From Elusimicrobiota bacterium (lineage in GTDB: Bacteria > CG03), in assembly GCA_021161565.1 (NCBI GenBank), contig JAGHAK010000075.1, positions 1 to 41,483 of the forward strand: a stretch of 41,483 nucleotides of DNA. Direction: 5' to 3'. The notes beneath the pieces were generated by a model that saw only the letters and a program-made list of their open reading frames with translations, did not search any database and had not been told where the DNA came from. How positions within the stretch are numbered: position 1 is the first letter of the stretch; each line of letters opens with the position of its first letter. Shown here piece by piece: positions 2,968-15,064 of the stretch. Both the position numbers and the translations under genes were made by a program.

Positions 2968-3231
2968 CCTATCCGCCTGCCATCGCTACGCTCAGGCGTT
3001 AGTGGGCAGGTCGCAGTCCCCCGCACTTTTACCCGCCTTCGCAGAGCCCACTTCGCCGTAGTAGCCTACAGCTACGAAGGCTGAAAAGCCACCCCGATTC
3101 ATCGGGGTGGATGAATGCGAAAAGGGTAACCCGCTGTAGCCTTGGCGAAAGCGGGTATGCTTCGGCGGGTTCCGCCGAAGAATGTGGAGGTGCCACGGCT
3201 GTGAAGCCGTGGTGCTCCACCATCAGGGAAT
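2968..3231. other. GC-rich multi-hairpin element (candidate structured RNA or REP-like palindrome cluster), family not recognised
   Basis: Local GC is clearly above the flanking sequence. Perfect stems are: 2976-81/3005-10; 3035-41/3075-81 enclosing 3061-65/3071-75; GAAA tetraloop hairpin 3079-90; 3089-97/3102-10 (9 bp); 3129-34/3151-56; 3160-68/3172-80 (9 bp); and a long GTGA-tetraloop hairpin 3184-3220. The only ORF here (3029..3238, minus strand) is not protein-like. Confidence 0.35.
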
Positions 3232-3260
3232 TTGACATCGGCTTTTTTTTAATGTATAAA
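3232..3260 (+). promoter_or_regulatory. sigma70-like promoter for the coiled-coil operon
   Basis: TTGACA (3232-3237), a 17-nt T-rich spacer, then TATAAA (3255-3260). The predicted start site is about 20 nt upstream of ATG 3289. Confidence 0.45.
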
Positions 3261-3288
3261 ATCTAAGAAAATCCGCGCGGGTTTTTTT

Positions 3289-6200
3289 ATGGAAAACAAA
3301 AATAACGATAAAATCGAAAATCTGAAAGTCGCTTTAGGGCGGCAGGTGACGGCGATACACAGAAAGTACGAGAATGAAATTTCCCGCCTTAAGGAAAAAA
3401 TAAACGCGCTCGAAAAAGACAGAGCGTTTCTCCAGGCGAGAGTTTCAATAGAAACAGCAAAACTGAACAGGCAGTTCCGCAGCCGCCTGAGCGAACTCGA
3501 GAGAAAAGAGAAAGAACTCGCACAGAGAGAATTTTTTCTGGCTGAAAAAGAAAAGAAACTGGAACTGCGCATTCAGGAAAAAGAACAGGTCATACAGAAT
3601 CTTAATGTCAAAGCGATGGAGACAGAGTCCAATCTCACGGCTCAGTTCAATCAGAAACTCAGAGACAAGGAATGGGAAAGCGTCAGGAAAGATGACGAGA
3701 TAAAAACTCTGCGGCGGCTTGCCGAAGAGAAGGAAAAGGAAATTCGCAAAATAGCGGAAACGTTAAAGAACGAAATAAACGAGGTAAAAGAAAAACACAA
3801 AGCGGAAATTTTATCGATGAGTTCCCGTTTTGCGGTCGAGAGGGGAGAATTTGAGAGGGAAAAATACGCGCTTCAGCAGACGATAAAAGCGCTGAAAAAG
3901 AACATTTCGGAAAATGTCGTCAGCCGCAGGGAAATCGTGGCTTCCTACGAAGAGAAACTGAAAGCGCAGGCTCTTGAGGCGGCCGAGCAGGTTTCGAACC
4001 TTCAGAATGCGCTTGCCGAAGTCACCGCGGAAAGGGATTCCCTCACGAAAAATCTTGAAGAACTTCGGCTCAAGAGTCATCTGCTTGTGGAGGATACGGA
4101 GAAAAGATACCGCAAGGAGATACAGAATCTGACTTCCGCTGGCCAGGAAGCGAAGAGGGATCTCGCCGCCGCGAAGAAAACGATAGAAGATCTTCAGGCG
4201 GTCATCAAGTCGACCGAGGAAAATTACGAAAAGAAAATTTCGCAGATTGAGGATTCTGCCAGGGTTGTGGAAATCGAACTGCGCAACAGGCTCTCGGAAA
4301 AAGACGCGCAGATTTCCAGAATAGAGAGTGTCAACAAGAAACGCATTGCGGAACTGGAAAGCCTTGTGTCTTCGCTTTCCGAGGAAAAGGATAAACTCGT
4401 CCGAGAAACCGAAATTCTGAAAGAAAGGAACAAAGAAACCGAGAATAAATATTCTGCCCAGTACATTTCTCTTGCGGAAGAGAAGAGACATTTGAAAGAG
4501 ATGCTCGAGAAAGAAATATCCTCGCTGAAGGAGAAAATCGTTCAGAAAGAATCGGCTCTTTCCGCGATGGAAATGGCGTCGAGCCGCGAAAGGACGGATT
4601 TTCAGATAAAAATTTCCGCTCTTGCGGATGAAATCGGCGATTTGAAAAATGAAAAACAGCGCATTGAAATCGAGAAGAATAAAATAATTGAGCAAAAGGA
4701 CGGCGAAATTTATTCGCTGAATCTTCTGATTAAGGAAAGGGAAAAGGAATCTGAGAAGAGATATTCCGAGATTTTGCAAAAATATAATCTTGTCTCGCAG
4801 AAGTTTTCCTCAGAGAGGGAAACTTTCCTCGCCCGCATCGAGGAGAAGGAAAAAGTCATTTCGCAGCTAAAGCAGGATGCAGACCGTTTGCGTCTGGAAA
4901 AGCAGATATCCGTCACAGAAATCGAGAAGGAAAAGAACAGGGAAATCGACCGCCTCAACAACGAAATTTCTAATCTGACAGAAAAGATAAATCGGCTCAA
5001 TGAGAACCTTAAAGCCGAGCAGGCCAGACACGCCAGTGAGATTTCCGAAAAAGACGCGCGGTTTCAGGAAATAGCGGATAATCTTCGTCTCCAGATTGAC
5101 GCGAAAGAAGATGCCATTTTCAAACTGAAAGACGAGCACCAGAGGAAATTGCTTGAAAAGGACAGCGAATATCAGAGAAAAATAGACGAGATGAGAAACG
5201 CGATTCTGGTAAACAGCCAGAAGTTTCAGAAGGAAAAAGAGATTCTGAACAACAAGTTAATATCGCGGGAAAACGAAATCAACGCGCTCAAACAGGCGCA
5301 GGAGGAGCAACTGGCTCACCTGTATTCGGTCAGGGAGTCGGAAAAGGCTGCTTATCAGAAGGAGATTTCACAGCGTTCCGAGAGAATCGGGATTCTGGAA
5401 CAGGAACTTGCGGCCAGGTCTGAGCAGATTAAGAAGTTTGCCTCTGAGACTTCCGCTTTGAAATCGAAAATAGAATCGCTGAAGGAAGAAAAATCCTCGC
5501 TTGAGCAGTCAAACGCTTCCATAATTTCGGAAAAGGAAAACCGCATACTCGCGCAGGAAGCCGAAATCGAGACCCTCAAAAAAGAATTAAATCGCATTGA
5601 GGAATCGAAGGAGAAGGAGGTTGCCCGCGCGAGAGATGAACTTTCGAAAGTTGTTTCCGAGAAAGAGGAATCTTTCGGACGCCTGCGTGCGGAGATGGAA
5701 GAGGTTTCCCGCAAGAATGAAGAACTTTCAGCCGAAAATCTGCGGCTCCGCAATGAAATCGTTTCGCAGAAGAGCGAATTCGAGAAGCGTCAAGATGTTA
5801 TTATTGTCGGCAAAAATTCCGAAATAGACAGGCTCAAAACGGCCCTCTCCGCGGGGAAAAAGGAAATTCAGAAATTGAAGACGGAAAACAAAATCGCTCT
5901 TGAGAATCTGAAAAAGCAATATCAGGAAATAATAAACGAAAAAGAAATGAATTTTTCCCGCCAGATTTCGTCTTATGAGGCAAAACTGGCGTCGCTTGAC
6001 GAACTTAACGGGCAGTTGGCAGAGAAAATCCGCCAGTTGGAGAAGTCGAATATGGCTTCATCCGAGAATTACGAAAAGAAAATTGCGGAAATCAAGACAA
6101 AGTTTGACAGGGAACTTGCCGGCCTCAAAAGCGAGTTTAATAAGGAACGCCGCAAGCTGACGGACAGAATTTCGCTTCTTCGGGAAAACCTTTCCGGAAA

Positions 6201-6753
6201 GGAAGAGGAATTCTCCGCTCGCCTGGCCACGGTAAAAAAGGAAAACGAAAATCTGAGGCGCCAGATCGCCGATATGAAACTTGACAGGGAAGCCGCATCC
6301 GGCAGATGGAACGAGCAGAAACAGGCTCTGCTTGACCAGATAAAAATGATGGAAATGAGGCTAAAGGAAGAGACGAAAAAACTGAAGGAATTTCAGATAA
6401 AATATCACCGCAGAGACGCTCAGGCTATCGAAGAAGCGGGACGTCTGGAGAAGGAATACGCGGAAAAACTCGAGCAGCAGCGCGCGGAATTCGAAAAGCG
6501 GTTGAAGGGTCTTTCAGACGAAATCGGCCGTCTCAAGGACGAACTCGCAGAGGTTTACCGGCGGACATCCGCGGAGAAGGATGCTCTGAAAGAGGAGTAT
6601 GACGCGAAACTTCGGGAGGAGCGCGACAGATTCAACAACGAGAGAATTCGCCTGATGGACGAAATGAGGGATTTGAGAGATATAAACAGGGCACTCGAAG
6701 AGGAACTTTCGTCGATACGAGCTCGCCTTGAAACATTCAAAAAAGGAATTTGA
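3289..6753 (+). CDS. Giant coiled-coil protein 1 (1154 aa), function unknown
   Basis: Uninterrupted 3.46 kb ORF. The composition is dominated by E/K/R/L/I/S with heptad-like spacing of hydrophobic residues throughout. I counted 0 Pro and 0 Cys. There is no Walker A/B, no TM segment and no signal peptide. Confidence 0.85.
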   Translation: MENKNNDKIENLKVALGRQVTAIHRKYENEISRLKEKINALEKDRAFLQARVSIETAKLNRQFRSRLSELERKEKELAQREFFLAEKEKKLELRIQEKEQVIQNLNVKAMETESNLTAQFNQKLRDKEWESVRKDDEIKTLRRLAEEKEKEIRKIAETLKNEINEVKEKHKAEILSMSSRFAVERGEFEREKYALQQTIKALKKNISENVVSRREIVASYEEKLKAQALEAAEQVSNLQNALAEVTAERDSLTKNLEELRLKSHLLVEDTEKRYRKEIQNLTSAGQEAKRDLAAAKKTIEDLQAVIKSTEENYEKKISQIEDSARVVEIELRNRLSEKDAQISRIESVNKKRIAELESLVSSLSEEKDKLVRETEILKERNKETENKYSAQYISLAEEKRHLKEMLEKEISSLKEKIVQKESALSAMEMASSRERTDFQIKISALADEIGDLKNEKQRIEIEKNKIIEQKDGEIYSLNLLIKEREKESEKRYSEILQKYNLVSQKFSSERETFLARIEEKEKVISQLKQDADRLRLEKQISVTEIEKEKNREIDRLNNEISNLTEKINRLNENLKAEQARHASEISEKDARFQEIADNLRLQIDAKEDAIFKLKDEHQRKLLEKDSEYQRKIDEMRNAILVNSQKFQKEKEILNNKLISRENEINALKQAQEEQLAHLYSVRESEKAAYQKEISQRSERIGILEQELAARSEQIKKFASETSALKSKIESLKEEKSSLEQSNASIISEKENRILAQEAEIETLKKELNRIEESKEKEVARARDELSKVVSEKEESFGRLRAEMEEVSRKNEELSAENLRLRNEIVSQKSEFEKRQDVIIVGKNSEIDRLKTALSAGKKEIQKLKTENKIALENLKKQYQEIINEKEMNFSRQISSYEAKLASLDELNGQLAEKIRQLEKSNMASSENYEKKIAEIKTKFDRELAGLKSEFNKERRKLTDRISLLRENLSGKEEEFSARLATVKKENENLRRQIADMKLDREAASGRWNEQKQALLDQIKMMEMRLKEETKKLKEFQIKYHRRDAQAIEEAGRLEKEYAEKLEQQRAEFEKRLKGLSDEIGRLKDELAEVYRRTSAEKDALKEEYDAKLREERDRFNNERIRLMDEMRDLRDINRALEEELSSIRARLETFKKGI

Positions 6754-6765
6754 CCGGAGGTTTGA

Positions 6766-9700
6766 ATGGATAAGAAAAGCCCGTCCAGAGAGATAGACAA
6801 ATTGAAAGAGGATATGCTTTCGCAAATCGAATTTCTCAAATCGCGGCTTGAGAGGGAACGAGCGGAACATCAGGAGAAAATTTTGAAACTTCAGTCGGAA
6901 AACATCGCCATCCGGACGGAATTCAAAGAACGGGAAAATCAGCTTCTCTCCCGGCTGAGGGATCTTCAAAACGAGTTGAAGAGACTGAATCAGGAGTATT
7001 CCGATGACCGAAAAACCTGGGAGGAAATTCTCAAGAGCAAGGAAGAAGAGAAAAGTTCGCTTTATGCGGAACTTGCCATCAAGGAAAACGAAGCTCTCAG
7101 CAGTCAGGAAAAGGAAAAGAAGCGGTTTATGGAAAGAGAGGACAGTCTGCGCCGCCAGATTGAAAATCTCGAAAAGGAACGAGCGGCCGCAAAATCGGAA
7201 CTCTCCGAAAAAATTTCGCAATTCGAAGAGGAAAGGGAGAATATCGTTTCCGGATACGAGGAAAAGATAGCGCTTCTTGAAAAACAGATTCTTTCGAAAG
7301 AAGATGAGATAAAAAAACTGAACGAGGAAATTTCGCGCCTGGAGGAAGAAACAGGACTTGTCCGCGGGGAAAACATTGTTCGCGAAAACGAACTCAACGA
7401 GGAGATTTCCCGTCTCAGGGAAGAAATCGTCAGACTGAAAACGGCGATTGAAAGCGAACGAGCCACCGCGGCTACGCAGGCGCAGATTAAAGACAGAGAC
7501 ATCAGGGAACTGAAGGAAAAATTTATTGATATGGAAAGGCGCCTCACTGAGGACATAGCATCTAAAGAGCGCGAAATTTCCGAACTTCAGCGGACTCTCG
7601 AAAAGGAGAGGGAAGAGTCGTCCCACAGAATACACGAACTTGAAGAGTCGATAAATGTCGTTCGAGCGGAAGCGGTTTTGAGGGAAGATTCCCTGAAGCG
7701 GGAATGGTCGCAGAATCGCGCCTCTCTCGAAGCGGAGAAGAAAGAACTTGAGGATAAAATTTCGGAACTCCGGAATGTTATCGAAACCGAGCGAGCCAGA
7801 TTCGGCGAAGAAATCCGCCGTCGGGAAGAGGAAATCACCCGTCTGAAACAGGAGATACAGAAAAATGTCGCGGATTTCCGCATTGCGCTTTCTGCTAAGG
7901 AAAAGGAGATGGAAGCCCAGCGTTATCAAGACGCTGAGCAGATAAAATTTCTGAAGTCGCGACTTGAACAGGAAAGGGATGTTTTCGAACAACGCCTTGC
8001 CGAGGAAGAAAAAAAATTCGAAAGAATTGTCGATGAAAAGGAAAAAATTGCGCAGGTTCTGCTTCTCAGAGAAAAAGAACTGGACGATTTGAAAAATCAA
8101 TGGGAGATAGAAAAGAAAAACTACAATACCCAGATAGAGGAACTGCGGATTCAGGCGGAGCGCGGGCGGCTCGTCCTCGCGAAAAAAGAGGAAGAGTTCC
8201 GCGGGGAAATTTCCGCCAAGGAAGAGGAAATTCGGGCGCTCAACATAAAAATAGGGGAATTGAATTCCGACTGGCAGAGGCGCCTTAAATTCGCGGAAGA
8301 GGAAATTTTCGCCAACCAGAAGGACAAATTCAGGGAAATAGCCGAACTGAAGGCGCAGCATCAGAAACAGGAAACGGAACTTATAAACCAGTATAACGAA
8401 AAAATAAACGAACTTACGGCGCTCAAATCGGCTTACGAAACGCAGACGCAGGAGCTTTCGAAGGGTCTTCTCGAGAAAGAGGACGAGATAAACACGCTTA
8501 AAAAGGTTTTGTCCGAGAAGGAAGGGGCTCTTCAGCACGCCGCGCGGGAAAAGGAACTCGAAATTGCGCAGGTCAGACACAGATTTGAAGACGAACTTGC
8601 CGCCGCGAGAGGGCAGTTCGAGGCCGAAAGAGAAAGATTTATTTCCGAATTATCGAAAAAAGAGGATGAGAAGAATAAGATTCTGAGCAGGACGGAAAAG
8701 GAAATCGCAGTGATTGACGCATCTTTGAAGGCGAAGGAAACAGAACTCAATCTCGCCGCCGCCCGCGCGAAGGAAGCGCAGGCGAATCTCGCTGCGCAGA
8801 TAAATTCCAAGGAAGCGGAAATTTCTTCGGCACGTTTGGAAATCTCGCGGCTTGTGGAGAAACTACGTCTTCAGGCGGAAAATTTCGACAGGGAAAGGGA
8901 GCGCCAGACGGCGAGTTTTCTCGAACAGTTGAAACTAAAAGAGGACAGCGGTCTTGCCGAGCGAAAGAGATTTCTCTCTGAGATTGAGGAGAAAGAGAAA
9001 AAACTCCAGGCAGAGAGAATCGAAAGCGAAGGGAAAATAAAGGAACTCCGCCAGGTAATTTCGGCGAAAGACAGAGAAATTTCCCATCTTACCGCGCGGC
9101 ACGCGGAAGAAATGGAGGAAATTTCGAAGAAAACCGCGAGCGAGATATCGAATTTGAAAATGAAAATTTCGAATCTCGAAAGCGAAAAGAATTCCCTCAA
9201 GGTTCAGGTGGCAAACCGCGAGGACGCGATAGCGGAATTAAAAAATGTTTCGTCCGAGAAGGAAAGGCATATTAAGGAACTTTTTGAGACGGAAAAAGCG
9301 CAGATTTTGAGCAAACTTACCGCCAAAGATGAGGAAATAAGAGGTCTTCGGCTTCAAATCGCCGAAGTCGAACGCCGCCGCAAAAATGAGATAGAATCTC
9401 GCTCGCTCGATTTTTTAAGGGAAAGAAGTCGCCTGCGCGAGGAAATAAACAAGTATTACAATAAATTTGTCGAAGTGTCATCGCAGGTTCAGGAATTGCT
9501 TGCGGCAAACGCGAAACTCAAAGGCGAGAAAGAGGAAGTTATAATCGAATGGCGGAAGCGTCTCGATGAAAAGGAAAATAATCTTATCGAGGCCAAAAAG
9601 GAACTGGAACGGATTCGGGAAAAATTCGGCGAACTTGGCGCTATGGAAGAGCGCCTCAAGGCGAAAGAGCGCGAACTGGGGGAATGGTCAGGTCGCCTGG

Positions 9701-10374
9701 CCGCCCGCGAAGCGGATTTTTCCAGGGAAGAGGAACGACTGAAGCAGGTGCATTCCCGGGAAATTCAGGGGCTTGAATCCGCGGCTGAAAATCTGAAAAG
9801 GCTTTTACAGGCGAAAGACGATGAAATCAGGGAAGTCAGAAGAGAAAGGGACATTCTCGAAAACAGACTGAGTGAAATAAAGGAGCAGAGCGAATCTTTT
9901 CGCCTCCGACAACGCGAAGCGGAATCTGAACTCAAGAAGGCTCTTGACGAGATAGGAAATCTGAAAAATATTATGAGGGAGAAGGAAAATCTCTTTGATC
10001 AGCGGATGAAGTCAATAACGGCGGAATTTTCCTCCCGCCGCTCGCAGATTGAGGAATCAGCCCGCCTCGAAGTGGAGCGCGCGCAAGCGGCGAAAAATTC
10101 CGTTTTGAGCGAACTGTCGAATACGAAGATTCTTTTTGACAGGCAACTGCGCGTCTGGGAGGACGAACGGGTCCGCCTGACGAGAGAGATAGAAAAAGTC
10201 CGTTCGGAATTTGAGAGAAAACGGGATTCGTGGGAGAAGGAAAAACGCGAACTTCTCGAAAAATTTTATCTGACAAACGCCACAAGAAAAGAACTTCTTT
10301 TAGAAATAGAAAATCTTGAAAAGCAGTTGAAGGAAGCCAACAAGGGGATTTTCAGAAAAATATTCGGAAAGTGA
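6766..10374 (+). CDS. Giant coiled-coil protein 2 (1202 aa), function unknown
   Basis: It starts 12 nt after the stop of protein 1 and has a GGAGG Shine-Dalgarno 7 nt upstream. The composition matches protein 1. The single Pro is at residue 6 and there is no Cys. It has internal repeats and a short amphipathic C-terminus (KGIFRKIFGK). Confidence 0.85.
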   Translation: MDKKSPSREIDKLKEDMLSQIEFLKSRLERERAEHQEKILKLQSENIAIRTEFKERENQLLSRLRDLQNELKRLNQEYSDDRKTWEEILKSKEEEKSSLYAELAIKENEALSSQEKEKKRFMEREDSLRRQIENLEKERAAAKSELSEKISQFEEERENIVSGYEEKIALLEKQILSKEDEIKKLNEEISRLEEETGLVRGENIVRENELNEEISRLREEIVRLKTAIESERATAATQAQIKDRDIRELKEKFIDMERRLTEDIASKEREISELQRTLEKEREESSHRIHELEESINVVRAEAVLREDSLKREWSQNRASLEAEKKELEDKISELRNVIETERARFGEEIRRREEEITRLKQEIQKNVADFRIALSAKEKEMEAQRYQDAEQIKFLKSRLEQERDVFEQRLAEEEKKFERIVDEKEKIAQVLLLREKELDDLKNQWEIEKKNYNTQIEELRIQAERGRLVLAKKEEEFRGEISAKEEEIRALNIKIGELNSDWQRRLKFAEEEIFANQKDKFREIAELKAQHQKQETELINQYNEKINELTALKSAYETQTQELSKGLLEKEDEINTLKKVLSEKEGALQHAAREKELEIAQVRHRFEDELAAARGQFEAERERFISELSKKEDEKNKILSRTEKEIAVIDASLKAKETELNLAAARAKEAQANLAAQINSKEAEISSARLEISRLVEKLRLQAENFDRERERQTASFLEQLKLKEDSGLAERKRFLSEIEEKEKKLQAERIESEGKIKELRQVISAKDREISHLTARHAEEMEEISKKTASEISNLKMKISNLESEKNSLKVQVANREDAIAELKNVSSEKERHIKELFETEKAQILSKLTAKDEEIRGLRLQIAEVERRRKNEIESRSLDFLRERSRLREEINKYYNKFVEVSSQVQELLAANAKLKGEKEEVIIEWRKRLDEKENNLIEAKKELERIREKFGELGAMEERLKAKERELGEWSGRLAAREADFSREEERLKQVHSREIQGLESAAENLKRLLQAKDDEIREVRRERDILENRLSEIKEQSESFRLRQREAESELKKALDEIGNLKNIMREKENLFDQRMKSITAEFSSRRSQIEESARLEVERAQAAKNSVLSELSNTKILFDRQLRVWEDERVRLTREIEKVRSEFERKRDSWEKEKRELLEKFYLTNATRKELLLEIENLEKQLKEANKGIFRKIFGK

Positions 10375-10440
10375 TAGGTTGTTGATAAGTTAAAAAGCTG
10401 ACAAGTTAACAAGTTGATAAGGGAAAATCCCCCCTCTCTT

Positions 10441-10583
10441 TCTCCCCCCTTCCAGGGGGGAGATTAAGTAGGGGGTTCTTTTACCTTTTCTACTTTTCAA
10501 CTTTTCACCTTTTTGGCGATTTACATCGCCCGCTACATCCCCCACCAAAATCCCGGTGAGGGGCCAGCGTGCAGGTGGGGGAT
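10441..10583. other. Stem-loops in a convergent intergenic region (possible non-canonical terminators)
   Basis: Stems are TCTCCCCCC/GGGGGGAGA (10441-49/10455-63), GGCGAT/ATCGCC (10515-20/10525-30) and ATCCCCCACC/GGTGGGGGAT (10537-46/10574-83, 27-nt loop). None is followed by a clean T-run. Confidence 0.3.
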
Positions 10584-10594
10584 ACATTTTAACT

Positions 10595-11266
10595 TCATTC
10601 CATCCAGAGGACAATGTTGTAGTCGCTGTCAATATTGGCTGAGTCCCCGTTATAGGGAATTATGGAAAAACCCTCGTCGTCCGGGGGGTAAAGAGTGTCT
10701 TTTATTCCTGCTTTAAAGATGTTGGGAATGGCGTATCTGAAATTGGAAGTACTTTTACCGGGTATATCATCAGGCACCGCACTGCTTGGCCCCTGACAGA
10801 TAATAGCTGAATAGCAATTACTTTTCTCTGAATAATCTTTATATAGAAATCTGTGCTCCCATGGATCGCTAAGAACATCTGTAGAATTTATATAAGGACC
10901 ATGCCAGTTGTAAATGTGTTTGTCGCCGTCTTTGTCATATTCAGTTCCTGTAGGATCGCAGCCTGCATCAGCAGTGAAATCATAATCTAAATCCCCATCT
11001 ATGAAATATTTTATCCATAAAGAAGTATCATTTGGATTGTTCCCAAGCCCGCAGAAAGTTCCTGCGTATGTCGGGAAATTGCCCGTATCGGAAAAATACA
11101 TTTTTATCGCGACCTGAAGAATTTTCATCTGCGCTTTCGCTTTGTTAAGCCGCATTGTTTTTTGCATATCGTTGAATTTCAGGGCTCCCGCTATAAAAAG
11201 AATGCCCATTATTGCTACGATAAGCATTAGTTCGGCGAGAGTGAAACTTTTCTGAAATTTTCTCAT
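10595..11266 (-). CDS. Type II secretion GspG-like / type IV pilin-like pseudopilin
   Basis: N-terminus MRKFQKS-FTLAELMLIVAIMGILFIAG is a class III signal with a hydrophobic helix and conserved Glu5. GspG-like LNKAKAQMKILQVAIKMYFSDTGNFP and a later DPWEHRFLY follow. Confidence 0.8.
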   Translation of the reverse strand: MRKFQKSFTLAELMLIVAIMGILFIAGALKFNDMQKTMRLNKAKAQMKILQVAIKMYFSDTGNFPTYAGTFCGLGNNPNDTSLWIKYFIDGDLDYDFTADAGCDPTGTEYDKDGDKHIYNWHGPYINSTDVLSDPWEHRFLYKDYSEKSNCYSAIICQGPSSAVPDDIPGKSTSNFRYAIPNIFKAGIKDTLYPPDDEGFSIIPYNGDSANIDSDYNIVLWME

Positions 11267-13652: not shown

Positions 13653-14239
13653 AGGTTTTCTATTTTTTCTGAATTCACTTTTATGAAATTCAGCATGGAA
13701 TCGGTTATGTAATAAAAAAAACGGAGTTTTAGTTTTTTGCCCGCCTCAGCCACATAGGCGGTTTCCATATCGATAATATCAAAGCACCTTTCTTTTAGCG
13801 CTGCGAAGATTTGCGGTTCGGCGAAAATGGAAGGGGTTGTGTAGACATTCGCTTTCCCAAACCCAGCCGCAGGAGTGAGTTTTTTTATGCGGTTTGTTTG
13901 TTTTAGGGTTTTCAGCGGGTTTTTTATGAAGCGCGAGAAATTTTCGCCGCCGGCCCAGCCTGCCCCCGTGCAGATTTCACCCGGAATGGGTTCACTCCCC
14001 ACGCTTCCCGCAAAACCGAAAAAGGTTATTTCTCTGATGCCGGCTTTTTTCAGAAAAAGAACGCAGTCTCCGGCGGATGTCCCGGTTCCGCAGTCGAGAA
14101 CAATGAATTTTTTTGTTTTTCCCCGTCCGGAATATCCCCGAAAGATGTGGAATTTTATTCTTTGCCTGCGTGTCAGTTGCGACAAAAAAATTTCGGCTAT
14201 TTTCCCGATTGGGCTGATAAACGCGATTTCAGATATCAT
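13631..14239 (-). CDS. Nucleoside phosphorylase-family protein (PNP_UDP_1; MTA/SAH-nucleosidase or futalosine-hydrolase-like)
   Basis: CGTGTSAG..., GFAGSVG and a C-terminal DMETAYVA motif resemble the phosphorylase/nucleosidase fold. The subfamily is not resolved. Confidence 0.55.
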   Translation of the reverse strand: MISEIAFISPIGKIAEIFLSQLTRRQRIKFHIFRGYSGRGKTKKFIVLDCGTGTSAGDCVLFLKKAGIREITFFGFAGSVGSEPIPGEICTGAGWAGGENFSRFIKNPLKTLKQTNRIKKLTPAAGFGKANVYTTPSIFAEPQIFAALKERCFDIIDMETAYVAEAGKKLKLRFFYYITDSMLNFIKVNSEKIENLCRQLAR

Positions 14240-14645
14240 TGGCTTCCAGAATCGGTTTTGCCCGGAGTTTTTTCTTTTCCGCTACGATTTTTTTCAATTT
14301 CAGAATTTTTTCCTTTGCCCTTTTGGACCTTTTTCTTTTCTGTCTTCTTATTTTGCTGATTTCTTTCATCTTCGCGCTTTTCGCGCCGAGAATTTTCTGC
14401 TCGATTTTTTCTGCGAGAATTCTTCGGGCGAGGAATCTGTTGAGCGCCTGCGACCGCGACTTCTGGCATTTCACTGCAATTCCCGAGGGTCTGTGCTTCA
14501 GAAAAACGCAGGTCGAGGTTTTGTTGACTTTCTGCCCGCCAGGGCCCTGTGATTTTATGAACTTTTCGGAAATGTTTTCTTCGCGGATTTTAAGTTTCCG
14601 GAATTTTTTCTTCAGCTGCGCGATTTTTTCAGGCGATACCGTCAT
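14229..14645 (-). CDS. arfB: GGQ-motif peptidyl-tRNA hydrolase, ArfB-like ribosome rescue factor
   Basis: SQGPGGQKVNKTSTCVFLKH is followed by a long basic C-terminal tail. Start taken at MTVSPEK, where the ATG overlaps the upstream stop as ATGA (14642-14645). This gives 138 aa, close to the length of E. coli ArfB. Confidence 0.8.
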   Translation of the reverse strand: MTVSPEKIAQLKKKFRKLKIREENISEKFIKSQGPGGQKVNKTSTCVFLKHRPSGIAVKCQKSRSQALNRFLARRILAEKIEQKILGAKSAKMKEISKIRRQKRKRSKRAKEKILKLKKIVAEKKKLRAKPILEANDI

Positions 14646-15001
14646 TTGAAAATCGTGTAGATTCCGCCTGCCACCATCGCTAAGCCGAATATTTTTCTCA
14701 AAAGATTCCCGTCGATTGAGCATGCGATGCGGGCTCCCAAAAGCCCCCCGAAAAAAAATCCGAGACAGATGCCTGCCGCAATGTCGGCAATGACAAATCC
14801 TTTTTTGTAGTATGTCCATGCCGCCAGAAGCCCGATGGGCGGAACCATCAGGGCGAGAGTTGTGCCCTGCGCCTGATGCTGGGAAAGGTGAAATATATAG
14901 AGAAGAGCCGGAATTATGAACAACCCGCCGCCGATTCCGATAAGACCACTGATTGCCCCGACCAGAACCCCGAAGATTACATAAATCGCAAAATTAAGCA
15001 T
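14642..15001 (-). CDS. Half-size TSUP (TauE/SafE, DUF81) membrane protein, 119 aa
   Basis: Four predicted TM helices carry the family's glycine-rich motif (GAISGLIGIGGGLFIIPALL). Start at MLNFAIY has GGAGG 5 nt upstream. Confidence 0.7.
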   Translation of the reverse strand: MLNFAIYVIFGVLVGAISGLIGIGGGLFIIPALLYIFHLSQHQAQGTTLALMVPPIGLLAAWTYYKKGFVIADIAAGICLGFFFGGLLGARIACSIDGNLLRKIFGLAMVAGGIYTIFK

Positions 15002-15064
15002 TTTTGCCTCCAGACCGAGATACGGAAATTTACTACTGTATGGTTCCATTCCTTTTACAAATAT

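Follow-up and report, generated by a model that had tools for sequence, protein, structure and literature searches.

An apparent orphan pair of giant coiled-coil proteins in Elusimicrobia with a conserved non-heptad geometry and a putative membrane anchor on one partner

The coiled-coil proteins of the bacterial cytoskeleton are few and poorly understood, and research on them has centered on three or four model phyla. Crescentin runs along the inner membrane, and the eukaryotic golgins are rods of 100-200 nm that are attached to membranes by the C-terminus. Scy contains a 51-residue repeat (51/14 = 3.64), reportedly described by Walshaw et al. in 2010, and its partner coiled-coil gene adjoins scy. 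Scy is a bacterial protein of 1326 residues with a non-canonical coiled coil, and it interacts with ParA (PMC3718342). It is dominated by a hendecad-containing coiled coil, the dimeric hendecads of Scy and FilP have alanine-rich cores, and Scy, FilP, and DivIVA-like proteins are characterized by an N-terminal DivIVA-like RGYDxxEVD motif that is followed by a heptad coiled coil (PMC9858780). In Anabaena, the adjacent genes for ZicK and ZacK (Alr4504/Alr4505) encode proteins that form an interdependent heteropolymer and affect the shape of the cell and the trichome (bioRxiv 10.1101/553073). In this report, we describe two adjacent genes, here designated p1 and p2, from positions 1 to 41,483 of contig JAGHAK010000075.1 of an Elusimicrobiota bacterium (assembly GCA_021161565.1). 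This 41,483-nt stretch of DNA is called the window. Judged by their sequences, p1 and p2 appear to be an orphan, Elusimicrobia-specific pair that combines a conserved non-heptad geometry with a one-sided putative membrane anchor.

The p1 gene (3289-6753, forward strand) encodes 1154 residues, and the p2 gene (6766-10374, forward strand) encodes 1202 residues. The open reading frame (ORF) calls and translations match exactly those of a first-pass annotation that had been made from the letters of the window without database searches. The two genes fill 7086 of the 41,483 nt (17%) and are separated by 12 nt (6754-6765). Direct reading of this gap gives a GGAGG ribosome-binding site at 6756-6760 (forward strand), 5 nt ahead of the ATG of p2. 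There is no Pro or Cys in p1, whereas p2 has a single Pro (residue 6) and no Cys. The residues E, K, R, and L account for 49% of p1 and 53% of p2, and charged residues for 42-45%; the net charge of p2 is -28. No Walker A motif was found in p1 or p2. Neither protein contains a transmembrane (TM) segment, because the top 19-residue Kyte-Doolittle mean is only 0.4-0.54 (the longest run without a charged residue is 11 residues), and neither has a signal peptide, because both N-termini are strongly charged. These counts and scans agree with the first-pass annotation, which had reported the share of the window, the gap and the GGAGG, the near-absence of Pro and Cys, the E/K/R/L richness, and the lack of a Walker motif, TM helix, signal peptide, or globular head.

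p1 and p2 are real, conserved genes of a narrow Elusimicrobia clade. The homologues of p1 form seven clusters with 35-42% identity, six of full length (1143-1160 aa) and one annotated as partial. Those of p2 form ten clusters with 47-52% identity; eight of these have the full length of 1202-1211 aa, and the other two are truncated, at 1131 and 1019 aa. All of these homologues are from metagenome-assembled genomes (MAGs) of Elusimicrobia or unclassified bacteria, about 7-10 MAG species in all, and they are collinear. When one genome per GTDB species (185,579 species) was scanned, relatives of p2 were found in only seven species. When 1.84 billion representative proteins were searched exhaustively with a hidden Markov model (HMM) profile of p1, five family members were returned, and the remainder were generic coiled-coil matches; the p2 profile search returned its own family only and added nothing. 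Relative to locus L007 (the loci of relatives are designated by L numbers), p1 and p2 have identities of 37% and 47%, respectively, a divergence similar to that of the syntenic neighboring (housekeeping) genes (38-59%). The alignment of p2 with its L007 counterpart contains 8 gap positions in 1208 columns, and there are hundreds of invariant columns in the p1 and p2 family alignments. Judging from these alignments, the length of both proteins is under strong constraint. Mapping of the distribution and synteny of the pair, which had been suggested in the first-pass annotation, placed it in a small Elusimicrobia clade with p1 and p2 adjacent in most species.

The earlier annotation had also raised the concern that the two ORFs might be chimeric assemblies of low-complexity sequence. 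Independent assemblies yield collinear homologues of the same length, and chimeric assembly is therefore ruled out; no tandem or long direct DNA repeats able to cause misassembly were found in the p1/p2 region. Paralogy of p1 and p2 was also considered. A comparison with hhalign gave a probability of 94%, but the alignment was off-register at 20% identity. The counts of shared invariant residues peaked at several unrelated offsets, and the global alignment score was 576, compared with 625 for a reversed control and 535-608 for rotated controls. Paralogy is unsupported because the alignment is off-register and the global score is no better than the controls.

The periodicity of the two proteins was determined from a spectrum computed on the hydrophobic residues LIVMFYW. 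A single dominant period was found at 3.578 residues for p1 and 3.580 residues for p2, compared with 3.5 for a heptad. The power at the peak was 97 times the random expectation for p1 and 42 times for p2, while shuffled sequences reached about 13 times at most. The peak was located between 3.572 and 3.584 in 19 of the 19 family members. In the family-averaged profiles, the seam of p1 keeps its phase within a 100-degree sector across all 1154 residues. The seam of p2 is coherent from residue 1 to approximately 960, shifts by approximately 230 degrees between residues 960 and 1050, and then regains its coherence up to approximately residue 1190. Heptad/hendecad phase mapping, which the first-pass annotation had put forward as a check, thus uncovered a non-heptad 3.578 seam that had been missed there.

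A trace of the seam by dynamic programming revealed heptads (3-4) and hendecads (3-4-4) interspersed at irregular spacings of 11, 18, and 25 residues. No long-period repeats (25, 43, 51, or 68 residues, or charge repeats like the 28-residue repeat of myosin) were found in p1 or p2. The phase resultant of p1 was 0.695, compared with 0.384 ± 0.055 when the same units were reordered; for residues 1-960 of p2, the values were 0.619 and 0.350 ± 0.048, respectively. In both cases, none of 300 reorderings reached the observed value, and heptads and hendecads are interspersed much more evenly than would be expected by chance. With the two kinds of unit evenly interspersed and a mean period of 3.578, the supercoil would be unusually shallow. 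An undistorted helix has 3.63 residues per turn (PMC9858780). We estimate that a 3.578 seam drifts by approximately 1.44 degrees per residue, which corresponds to a left-handed supercoil with a turn of approximately 250 residues (~37 nm), compared with approximately 14 nm for a heptad coiled coil.

The seam is narrow, and its core positions have distinct residue preferences. Ile occupies 29-31% of the a positions, Leu occupies 33-44% and Ile 9% of the d positions, and Lys, Arg, or Asn occurs occasionally in the core. Ile at a with Leu at d is the classical signature of a parallel dimer, a rule that is said to go back to Harbury et al. in 1993. The a/d signature of p1 and p2 appears to be that of parallel two-stranded coiled coils. 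In an in-register homodimer, the attractive g-e' pairs exceed the repulsive ones by approximately 1.4-3.5 to 1.

AlphaFold2 (AF2) monomer models that were built from the family alignments are approximately 90% helical for p1 and 96% helical for p2, and the prediction of mostly disordered structure that the first-pass annotation had named as a weakness of its reading was not obtained. The fold-back loops in these models are probably artefacts of modeling a monomer. An explanation in which the two genes are artefact ORFs, or encode charged single alpha-helices (SAHs) or disordered polyampholytes, is suggested by the E/K/R-rich composition, which resembles SAH (ER/K) segments, and by the low mean predicted local distance difference test (pLDDT) values of the AF2 models (58.5 for p1 and 62.7 for p2). 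This explanation is effectively refuted. Independent assemblies from different samples contain the same two proteins, DNA repeats are lacking, invariant columns number in the hundreds, and the hydrophobic residues, approximately 26% of the total, are located in a phase-locked seam that has different preferences at a and d.

The first-pass annotation had calculated a length of 170-180 nm for an uninterrupted helix of this size. The calculated lengths of approximately 171 nm for p1 and 178 nm for p2 agree with this range, and the absence of interruptions holds for p1. It does not hold for p2, which has a zone of changed register at residues ~943-1050 (9592-9915, forward strand) and a conserved hinge at residues 1167-1173. 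The register-change zone was identified by phase tracking and by a loop in the AF2 model at residues 943-964 (model residues 941-962) that coincides with the phase shift. Residues ~870-1040, which overlap the start of this zone, have a local period of approximately 3.5, as in canonical heptads. The hinge, FYLT(D/N)AT (10264-10284, forward strand), is nearly invariant from F1167 to T1173, is located ahead of the last helix, and is non-helical in the AF2 model (model residues 1165-1171). A further conserved element, LVRGEN, is found at residues 198-203 of p2 (7357-7374, forward strand), with L198, R200, G201, E202, and N203 invariant; the AF2 model has a short helix break nearby at residues 195-199 (model residues 193-197).

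In p1, the most conserved part is a segment near the N-terminus, LKIALGRQVT.IH...EKDRAYLQA.SSIETAKINR.YRSRL (residues 13-75; 3325-3513, forward strand), and a second conserved segment is located near the C-terminus, R.L.DINRALEEELS.IR.RLE..K (residues 1127-1151; 6667-6741, forward strand). Both contain invariant columns. Conservation is not confined to the core of the rods; the surface and core values are 0.64 and 0.67 for p1, and 0.71 and 0.76 for p2. The conserved surface islands of p1 are residues 4-230, 304-339, 372-430, 470-508, 999-1036, and 1106-1153, among which residues 4-90 and 1106-1153 are singled out as end segments. Those of p2 are residues 33-123, 189-221, 269-321, 418-450, 481-538, 591-725, 858-906, and 1154-1199. 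Since the surface is nearly as conserved as the core, the rods are interaction surfaces and not mere spacers.

The first-pass annotation was correct in that there is no globular head, but it overlooked the C-terminal tail of p2. The last ten residues, KGIFRKIFGK (residues 1193-1202; 10342-10371, forward strand), are amphipathic and basic and constitute a putative membrane-targeting sequence (MTS). The C-terminus of p2 reads ...EANKGIFRKIFGK, and that of the family consensus reads ...ESKKGILKKIFG. The consensus of the tail is KKGILKKIFG, and all ten full-length homologues of p2 have the motif, which is absent from the eight homologues of p1. The C-terminus of p1, ...RLE(S/T)FKKG, does not have a MinD-like tail. 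The net charge of the p2 tail is +4 to +5, and the tail is among the few acid-free windows of the protein. It is preceded by a helix breaker (Gly, Pro, or Ser), and the predicted hinge FYLT(D/N)AT is located approximately 25 residues ahead of it. The MTS of MinD from Escherichia coli is KGFLKRLFGG (PMC5471200). The p2 tail has in common with this sequence the pattern K-G-hydrophobic-hydrophobic-basic-basic-hydrophobic-F-G, the position at the extreme C-terminus, and a net positive charge. An MTS of the MinD/FtsA type is carried by an ATPase, whereas the tail of p2 is carried by a coiled coil of 178 nm, and the likeness probably arose by convergence. The p2 tail thus conforms in sequence to the definition of a MinD-type MTS, and its membrane binding is putative.

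Six species, counting that of the window, have p1 and p2 side by side on the same strand with -4 to 12 nt between them (the other loci are L004/L011, L005/L012, L007/L008/L015, L013, and L014). From the genes themselves, their conservation and linkage, the helicity, the periodicity, the a/d signature, the tail motif, and the promoter described below, we propose a dimer state, membrane binding, co-assembly, and a cellular role for the pair. p1 and p2 would be lineage-specific structural proteins of the cytoplasm. Each would form a parallel, in-register two-stranded rod, of approximately 171 nm for p1 and 178 nm for p2, and the p2 dimer would be anchored at the cytoplasmic face of the membrane through its two C-terminal tails. 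p1 would join p2 laterally and/or end to end, to give a membrane-associated, nucleotide-independent scaffold. Such a scaffold, of the kind formed by coiled-coil-rich proteins (CCRPs) and intermediate filament (IF)-like proteins, would support cell shape, polarity, or envelope organization. Co-assembly of p1 and p2 is probable because they have a common periodicity, are predicted to share a promoter and to be co-transcribed in most species, and have conserved ends and surface patches. We have moderate confidence in the membrane-tethered scaffold of p1 and p2.

A number of observations weigh against this proposal. The hendecad-center positions, which are flanked by two 4-residue steps, contain Phe, Tyr, or Trp at 21-24% and are also enriched in Leu but not in Ala. 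With bulky residues rather than Ala at these centers, a higher oligomer or a different packing is possible. Some unrelated coiled-coil proteins among the weak matches have spectral peaks at 3.56-3.63 with comparable power, for the most part owing to tandem repeats, and the geometry is therefore unusual but not unique; what distinguishes the periodicity of p1 and p2 is that it is coherent in the absence of a sequence repeat, and not its value alone. The pLDDT values of the AF2 models are low. Cross-correlation of the family-averaged core patterns gave no preferred p1-p2 register, either parallel or antiparallel, and hetero-assembly is putative. In at least two species (L001; L002/L010), p1 and p2 are approximately 8 kb apart, so that co-transcription is not essential. 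The operon of the first-pass annotation accordingly stands as an adjacent same-strand unit in six species, but it is not obligatory. There is no gene for the cytoskeleton or for division that consistently has the same orientation as the pair; FtsEX, M23, and CtpB genes are divergent in the relatives and absent from the window. Finally, the host organisms are uncultured.

The one-sided anchor and the conserved length are also consistent with a golgin-like tether or spacer. In this case, p2 dimers would stand off from the membrane, and their conserved N-terminal 170 residues would capture or position the nucleoid, a granule, or a complex. p1 would be an adaptor or extension, there would be no filament lattice, and the conserved length would be a ruler of approximately 175 nm. 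The anchor at one extreme end only, the strictly conserved length with almost no insertions or deletions, the strong conservation of the N-terminal segment of p2, and the conserved hinge-like breaks near the anchor all speak for such a tether. However, no cargo-binding domain was recognizable in the library searches, and the surface is conserved along the whole rod and not only at the tip, which fits lateral packing better. Cultivated ultramicrobacterial Elusimicrobia pass 0.2-μm filters (PMC7308576). A rod of 175 nm is about the cell width of cultivated Elusimicrobia, which would leave little room for it to stand perpendicular to the membrane. We consider the tether unlikely, though it deserves to be weighed.

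A more specific form of the membrane-tethered scaffold is conceivable, in which p1 and p2 make up a two-component membrane-anchored cytoskeleton of near-straight ~175-nm rods that act as a strut or ruler and set the cell diameter or the spacing of structures. The rod length is comparable to the cell width of ultramicrobacterial Elusimicrobia, a match that is only suggestive. If this idea is correct, the even mixing of heptads and hendecads would have been selected to hold one pitch over more than 1100 residues, which would allow p1 and p2 to pack in register. We offer it as speculation that will more probably prove wrong than right.

The sequence and profile searches of Pfam, NCBIfam, PADLOC, PHROGs, and the PDB gave no match to p1 or p2 at curated cut-offs and returned only generic coiled-coil arms. 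A Foldseek comparison of the p1 model with the PDB gave zero matches. Thus, no characterized family, which the first-pass annotation had said would weaken its claim, was found at cut-off by sequence, by profile, or with the p1 model by structure. Pfam DivIVA, Filament (PF00038), and Crescentin gave no match to p1 or p2 at E ≤ 1, and a regular-expression search for a DivIVA-like RGYDxxEVD motif found none in 19 of 19 family members. A literature search on Elusimicrobia and coiled coils, and another on hendecad periodicity in giant bacterial proteins, returned nothing relevant; judging from the first of these, the cytoskeleton of this phylum appears not to have been described.

The only library matches of p1 and p2 were to SMC, MukB, RecN, LmuB, and JetC, by way of their long antiparallel-arm coiled coils. 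The matches to SMC, LmuB, and JetC arms were weak, at 35-45 bits compared with cut-offs of 567-729 bits. The NCBIfam SMC models gave 11-45 bits against the same cut-offs, in arm regions only, and there was no match to Pfam SMC_N. SMC, MukB, and RecN have N- and C-terminal ATPase head halves, with Walker A (GxxxxGK[ST]), Walker B, and signature motifs, and a central hinge with fold-back antiparallel arms. Head halves, a Walker A motif, and a hinge are all absent from p1 and p2, and the scores are more than 10-fold below the cut-offs. The seam phase of p1 is continuous over 1154 residues, and a fold-back arm is therefore unlikely. The first-pass annotation had likewise placed the pair outside SMC, MukB, and RecN. 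These arm matches, together with the interaction of Scy with ParA (PMC3718342) and the presence of recA and xerC-like genes in the window, albeit approximately 12 kb away, might nevertheless point to an organizer of the chromosome or nucleoid, with the rods acting to scaffold or segregate DNA and the p2 tail serving as its membrane attachment. We regard such a function as improbable. The matches are confined to arms at scores far below the cut-offs, there is no Walker A motif, hinge, or DNA-binding domain, none of the loci has par or smc genes in the vicinity, and p2 is strongly negative in net charge.

The neighborhood of the pair is only partly shared among the species. Downstream, the window and the relatives have in common a convergent gene for a pseudopilin-like protein, followed by genes for an SPL-family protein, GT2, PNP, and an RF-1-domain protein. 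Upstream, the relatives have a block that is divergent from p1 and encodes PNP_UDP_1, (cytidine deaminase), DUF5693, a CsaB-like pyruvyl transferase, FtsE, and FtsX. The block continues with an M23 peptidase, the CtpB S41 protease, a polysaccharide deacetylase, and TsaD. This envelope/division block is located at 93-9893 in L001 and at equivalent positions in L002, L004, L005, and L007. In the window, HlyD-MacB is found upstream of p1 in its place. In the loci where the pair is split, the insert (L001 13624-21129; L002 13975-23462) contains toxin-antitoxin genes (helix-turn-helix (HTH)/Gp49 or ribbon-helix-helix (RHH)/PIN) and, on the opposite strand, an ExbB-ExbD-ExbD-TonB_C-TPR (Tol-like) cluster. 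The L002 insert additionally contains a gene for a 1059-aa DUF285/Por-secretion-tail protein.

The pseudopilin-like gene (10595-11266, reverse strand) is convergent with p2 and encodes 223 residues with a T2SSG domain and an N-terminal methylation motif. Its position is kept in most relatives, and in L007/L008 an AAA_14/DUF4143 gene is found between it and p2. The convergent intergenic region (10375-10594) contains polypyrimidine tracts and a C-run/G-run hairpin, TCTCCCCCC-N5-GGGGGGAGA (~10441-10463). This hairpin is probably a bidirectional terminator; the consensus scan made no such call. With a pseudopilin-like gene downstream, a CsaB-like pyruvyl transferase gene nearby in the relatives, and many weak database matches to cell-surface coiled-coil proteins, it might be asked whether p1 and p2 form fibrils that are secreted or displayed on the cell surface, in the manner of M proteins or S-layer stalks. 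This is highly improbable. Both proteins are without a signal peptide, sorting signal, TM segment, or wall anchor, the tail of p2 is of the amphipathic type found at the cytoplasmic face, and the pseudopilin gene is convergent and not co-transcribed with the pair. Further downstream, the longest ORFs for an RF-1-domain protein (14229-14819, 196 aa) and a TauE-like fragment (14642-15049, 135 aa) overlap on the reverse strand. The TauE-like fragment matches only the C-terminal half of the Pfam model, and the RF-1-domain homologue in L007 is merely 137 aa. The start codons in 14229-15049 require re-annotation, and the TauE-like fragment is possibly a remnant.

The pair is preceded by a promoter that is shared with the relatives. 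An alignment of the upstream regions of seven loci contains an invariant AA.TTGACA ... TTAATGTATAA block. The -35 hexamer, TTGACA (3232-3237, forward strand), is invariant in 7 of the 7 aligned loci, and the -10 hexamer, TATAAA (3255-3260, forward strand), is found 17 nt past the -35 hexamer within the invariant block TTAATGTATAA. A 16-nt exact match is located upstream of the L001 homologue. By its sequence, the p1 promoter is of the sigma-70 type with a perfect -35 element. The consensus scanner does not list it because its rule accepts only T as the final base of the -10 hexamer. The leader of p1 is short (3261-3288) and has no Shine-Dalgarno sequence ahead of p1. It contains a GC hairpin, UCCGCGCGGG, with a U-run directly ahead of the ATG (3270-3288, forward strand; palindrome I1). 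The hairpin and U-run resemble a terminator, and a CCGC..GCGG hairpin occupies the corresponding site in the relatives. This structure may be a 5' stabilizing stem-loop or an attenuator of the 7-kb transcript.

The first-pass annotation had also described a structured GC-rich element ahead of the pair. Such an element exists at 2990-3225, between the stop codon of macB and the p1 promoter, as approximately 235 nt of stacked GC-rich hairpins with seven inverted repeats and an RNA fold z of -5.1. It is specific to the window and is not part of the system, and it is the promoter instead that the relatives share. No further copies were found elsewhere in the window or in the loci of the relatives, and there was no match to Rfam even at E ≤ 10. 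The element was considered as a riboswitch or noncoding RNA of the operon and rejected, given that it has no Rfam family and is absent from the relatives. It is placed outside the p1-p2 unit because every relative lacks it, and it could be a terminator cluster, a repetitive extragenic palindromic (REP)-like element, or an undescribed small RNA.

The pair would add an example from Elusimicrobia, a phylum whose cultivated members are ultra-small, to the bacterial coiled-coil cytoskeletal proteins. p1 is a single coiled coil of 1154 residues without a break and with a conserved 3.578 period, and only one of the two partners has a recognizable anchor. p1 is a natural test case for how the mixing of heptads and hendecads tunes the pitch of a supercoil over hundreds of nanometers. 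In both proteins, the seam covers more than 95% of the length, and this, with the a/d signature and the predicted helix content of 90-96%, is the dominance of coiled coil by which CCRPs are recognized. The earlier suggestion that the nearest analogues are bacterial coiled-coil-rich or IF-like proteins is supported, and the ideas of a cytoskeletal scaffold, a molecular ruler, or a tether that accompanied it are still hypotheses.

With crescentin and IF proteins, p1 and p2 share conserved rod ends and would also share parallel-dimer rods and assembly without nucleotides. The crescentin/IF proteins, however, have a segmented rod of approximately 310 residues with a head and a tail, whereas p1 and p2 are approximately 4 times longer, are non-heptad, and are without a head-rod-tail or linker pattern. 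The golgins would resemble p2 as C-terminally anchored rods, by functional analogy only; they are eukaryotic, are unrelated in sequence, and have many hinge breaks, whereas p1 has none. Scy shares with p1 and p2 a very long bacterial non-heptad coiled coil, a partner coiled-coil protein, and, as proposed here for the pair, the character of a nucleotide-independent scaffold at the membrane or pole. Scy and FilP have a regular 51-residue repeat and an Ala-rich core, whereas p1 and p2 have an irregular 3.578 period and a core of Leu, Ile, and aromatic residues. The spectral power at 51/14 is 0.03 for p1 and 0.29 for p2, compared with 18.8 and 8.1, respectively, at 3.578-3.58, and the Ala share of the core positions is 5-10%. 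The pair differs further from Scy and FilP in the C-terminal amphipathic tail of p2 and in its phylum, and a sequence relationship is not detectable. The genes for ZicK and ZacK are, like p1 and p2, two adjacent genes for coiled-coil-rich proteins, and the exhaustive p1 and p2 profile searches gave no homology to them. Unlike ZicK and ZacK, p1 and p2 are almost wholly one continuous rod, a putative MTS is present on one of them, and their co-polymerization is hypothetical. The pair would thus work like a CCRP scaffold while belonging to no described family. Among bacterial non-heptad coiled coils of more than 1100 residues, the best precedent is Scy, and for neighboring CCRP genes with co-polymerizing products, ZicK/ZacK provide the best functional precedent.

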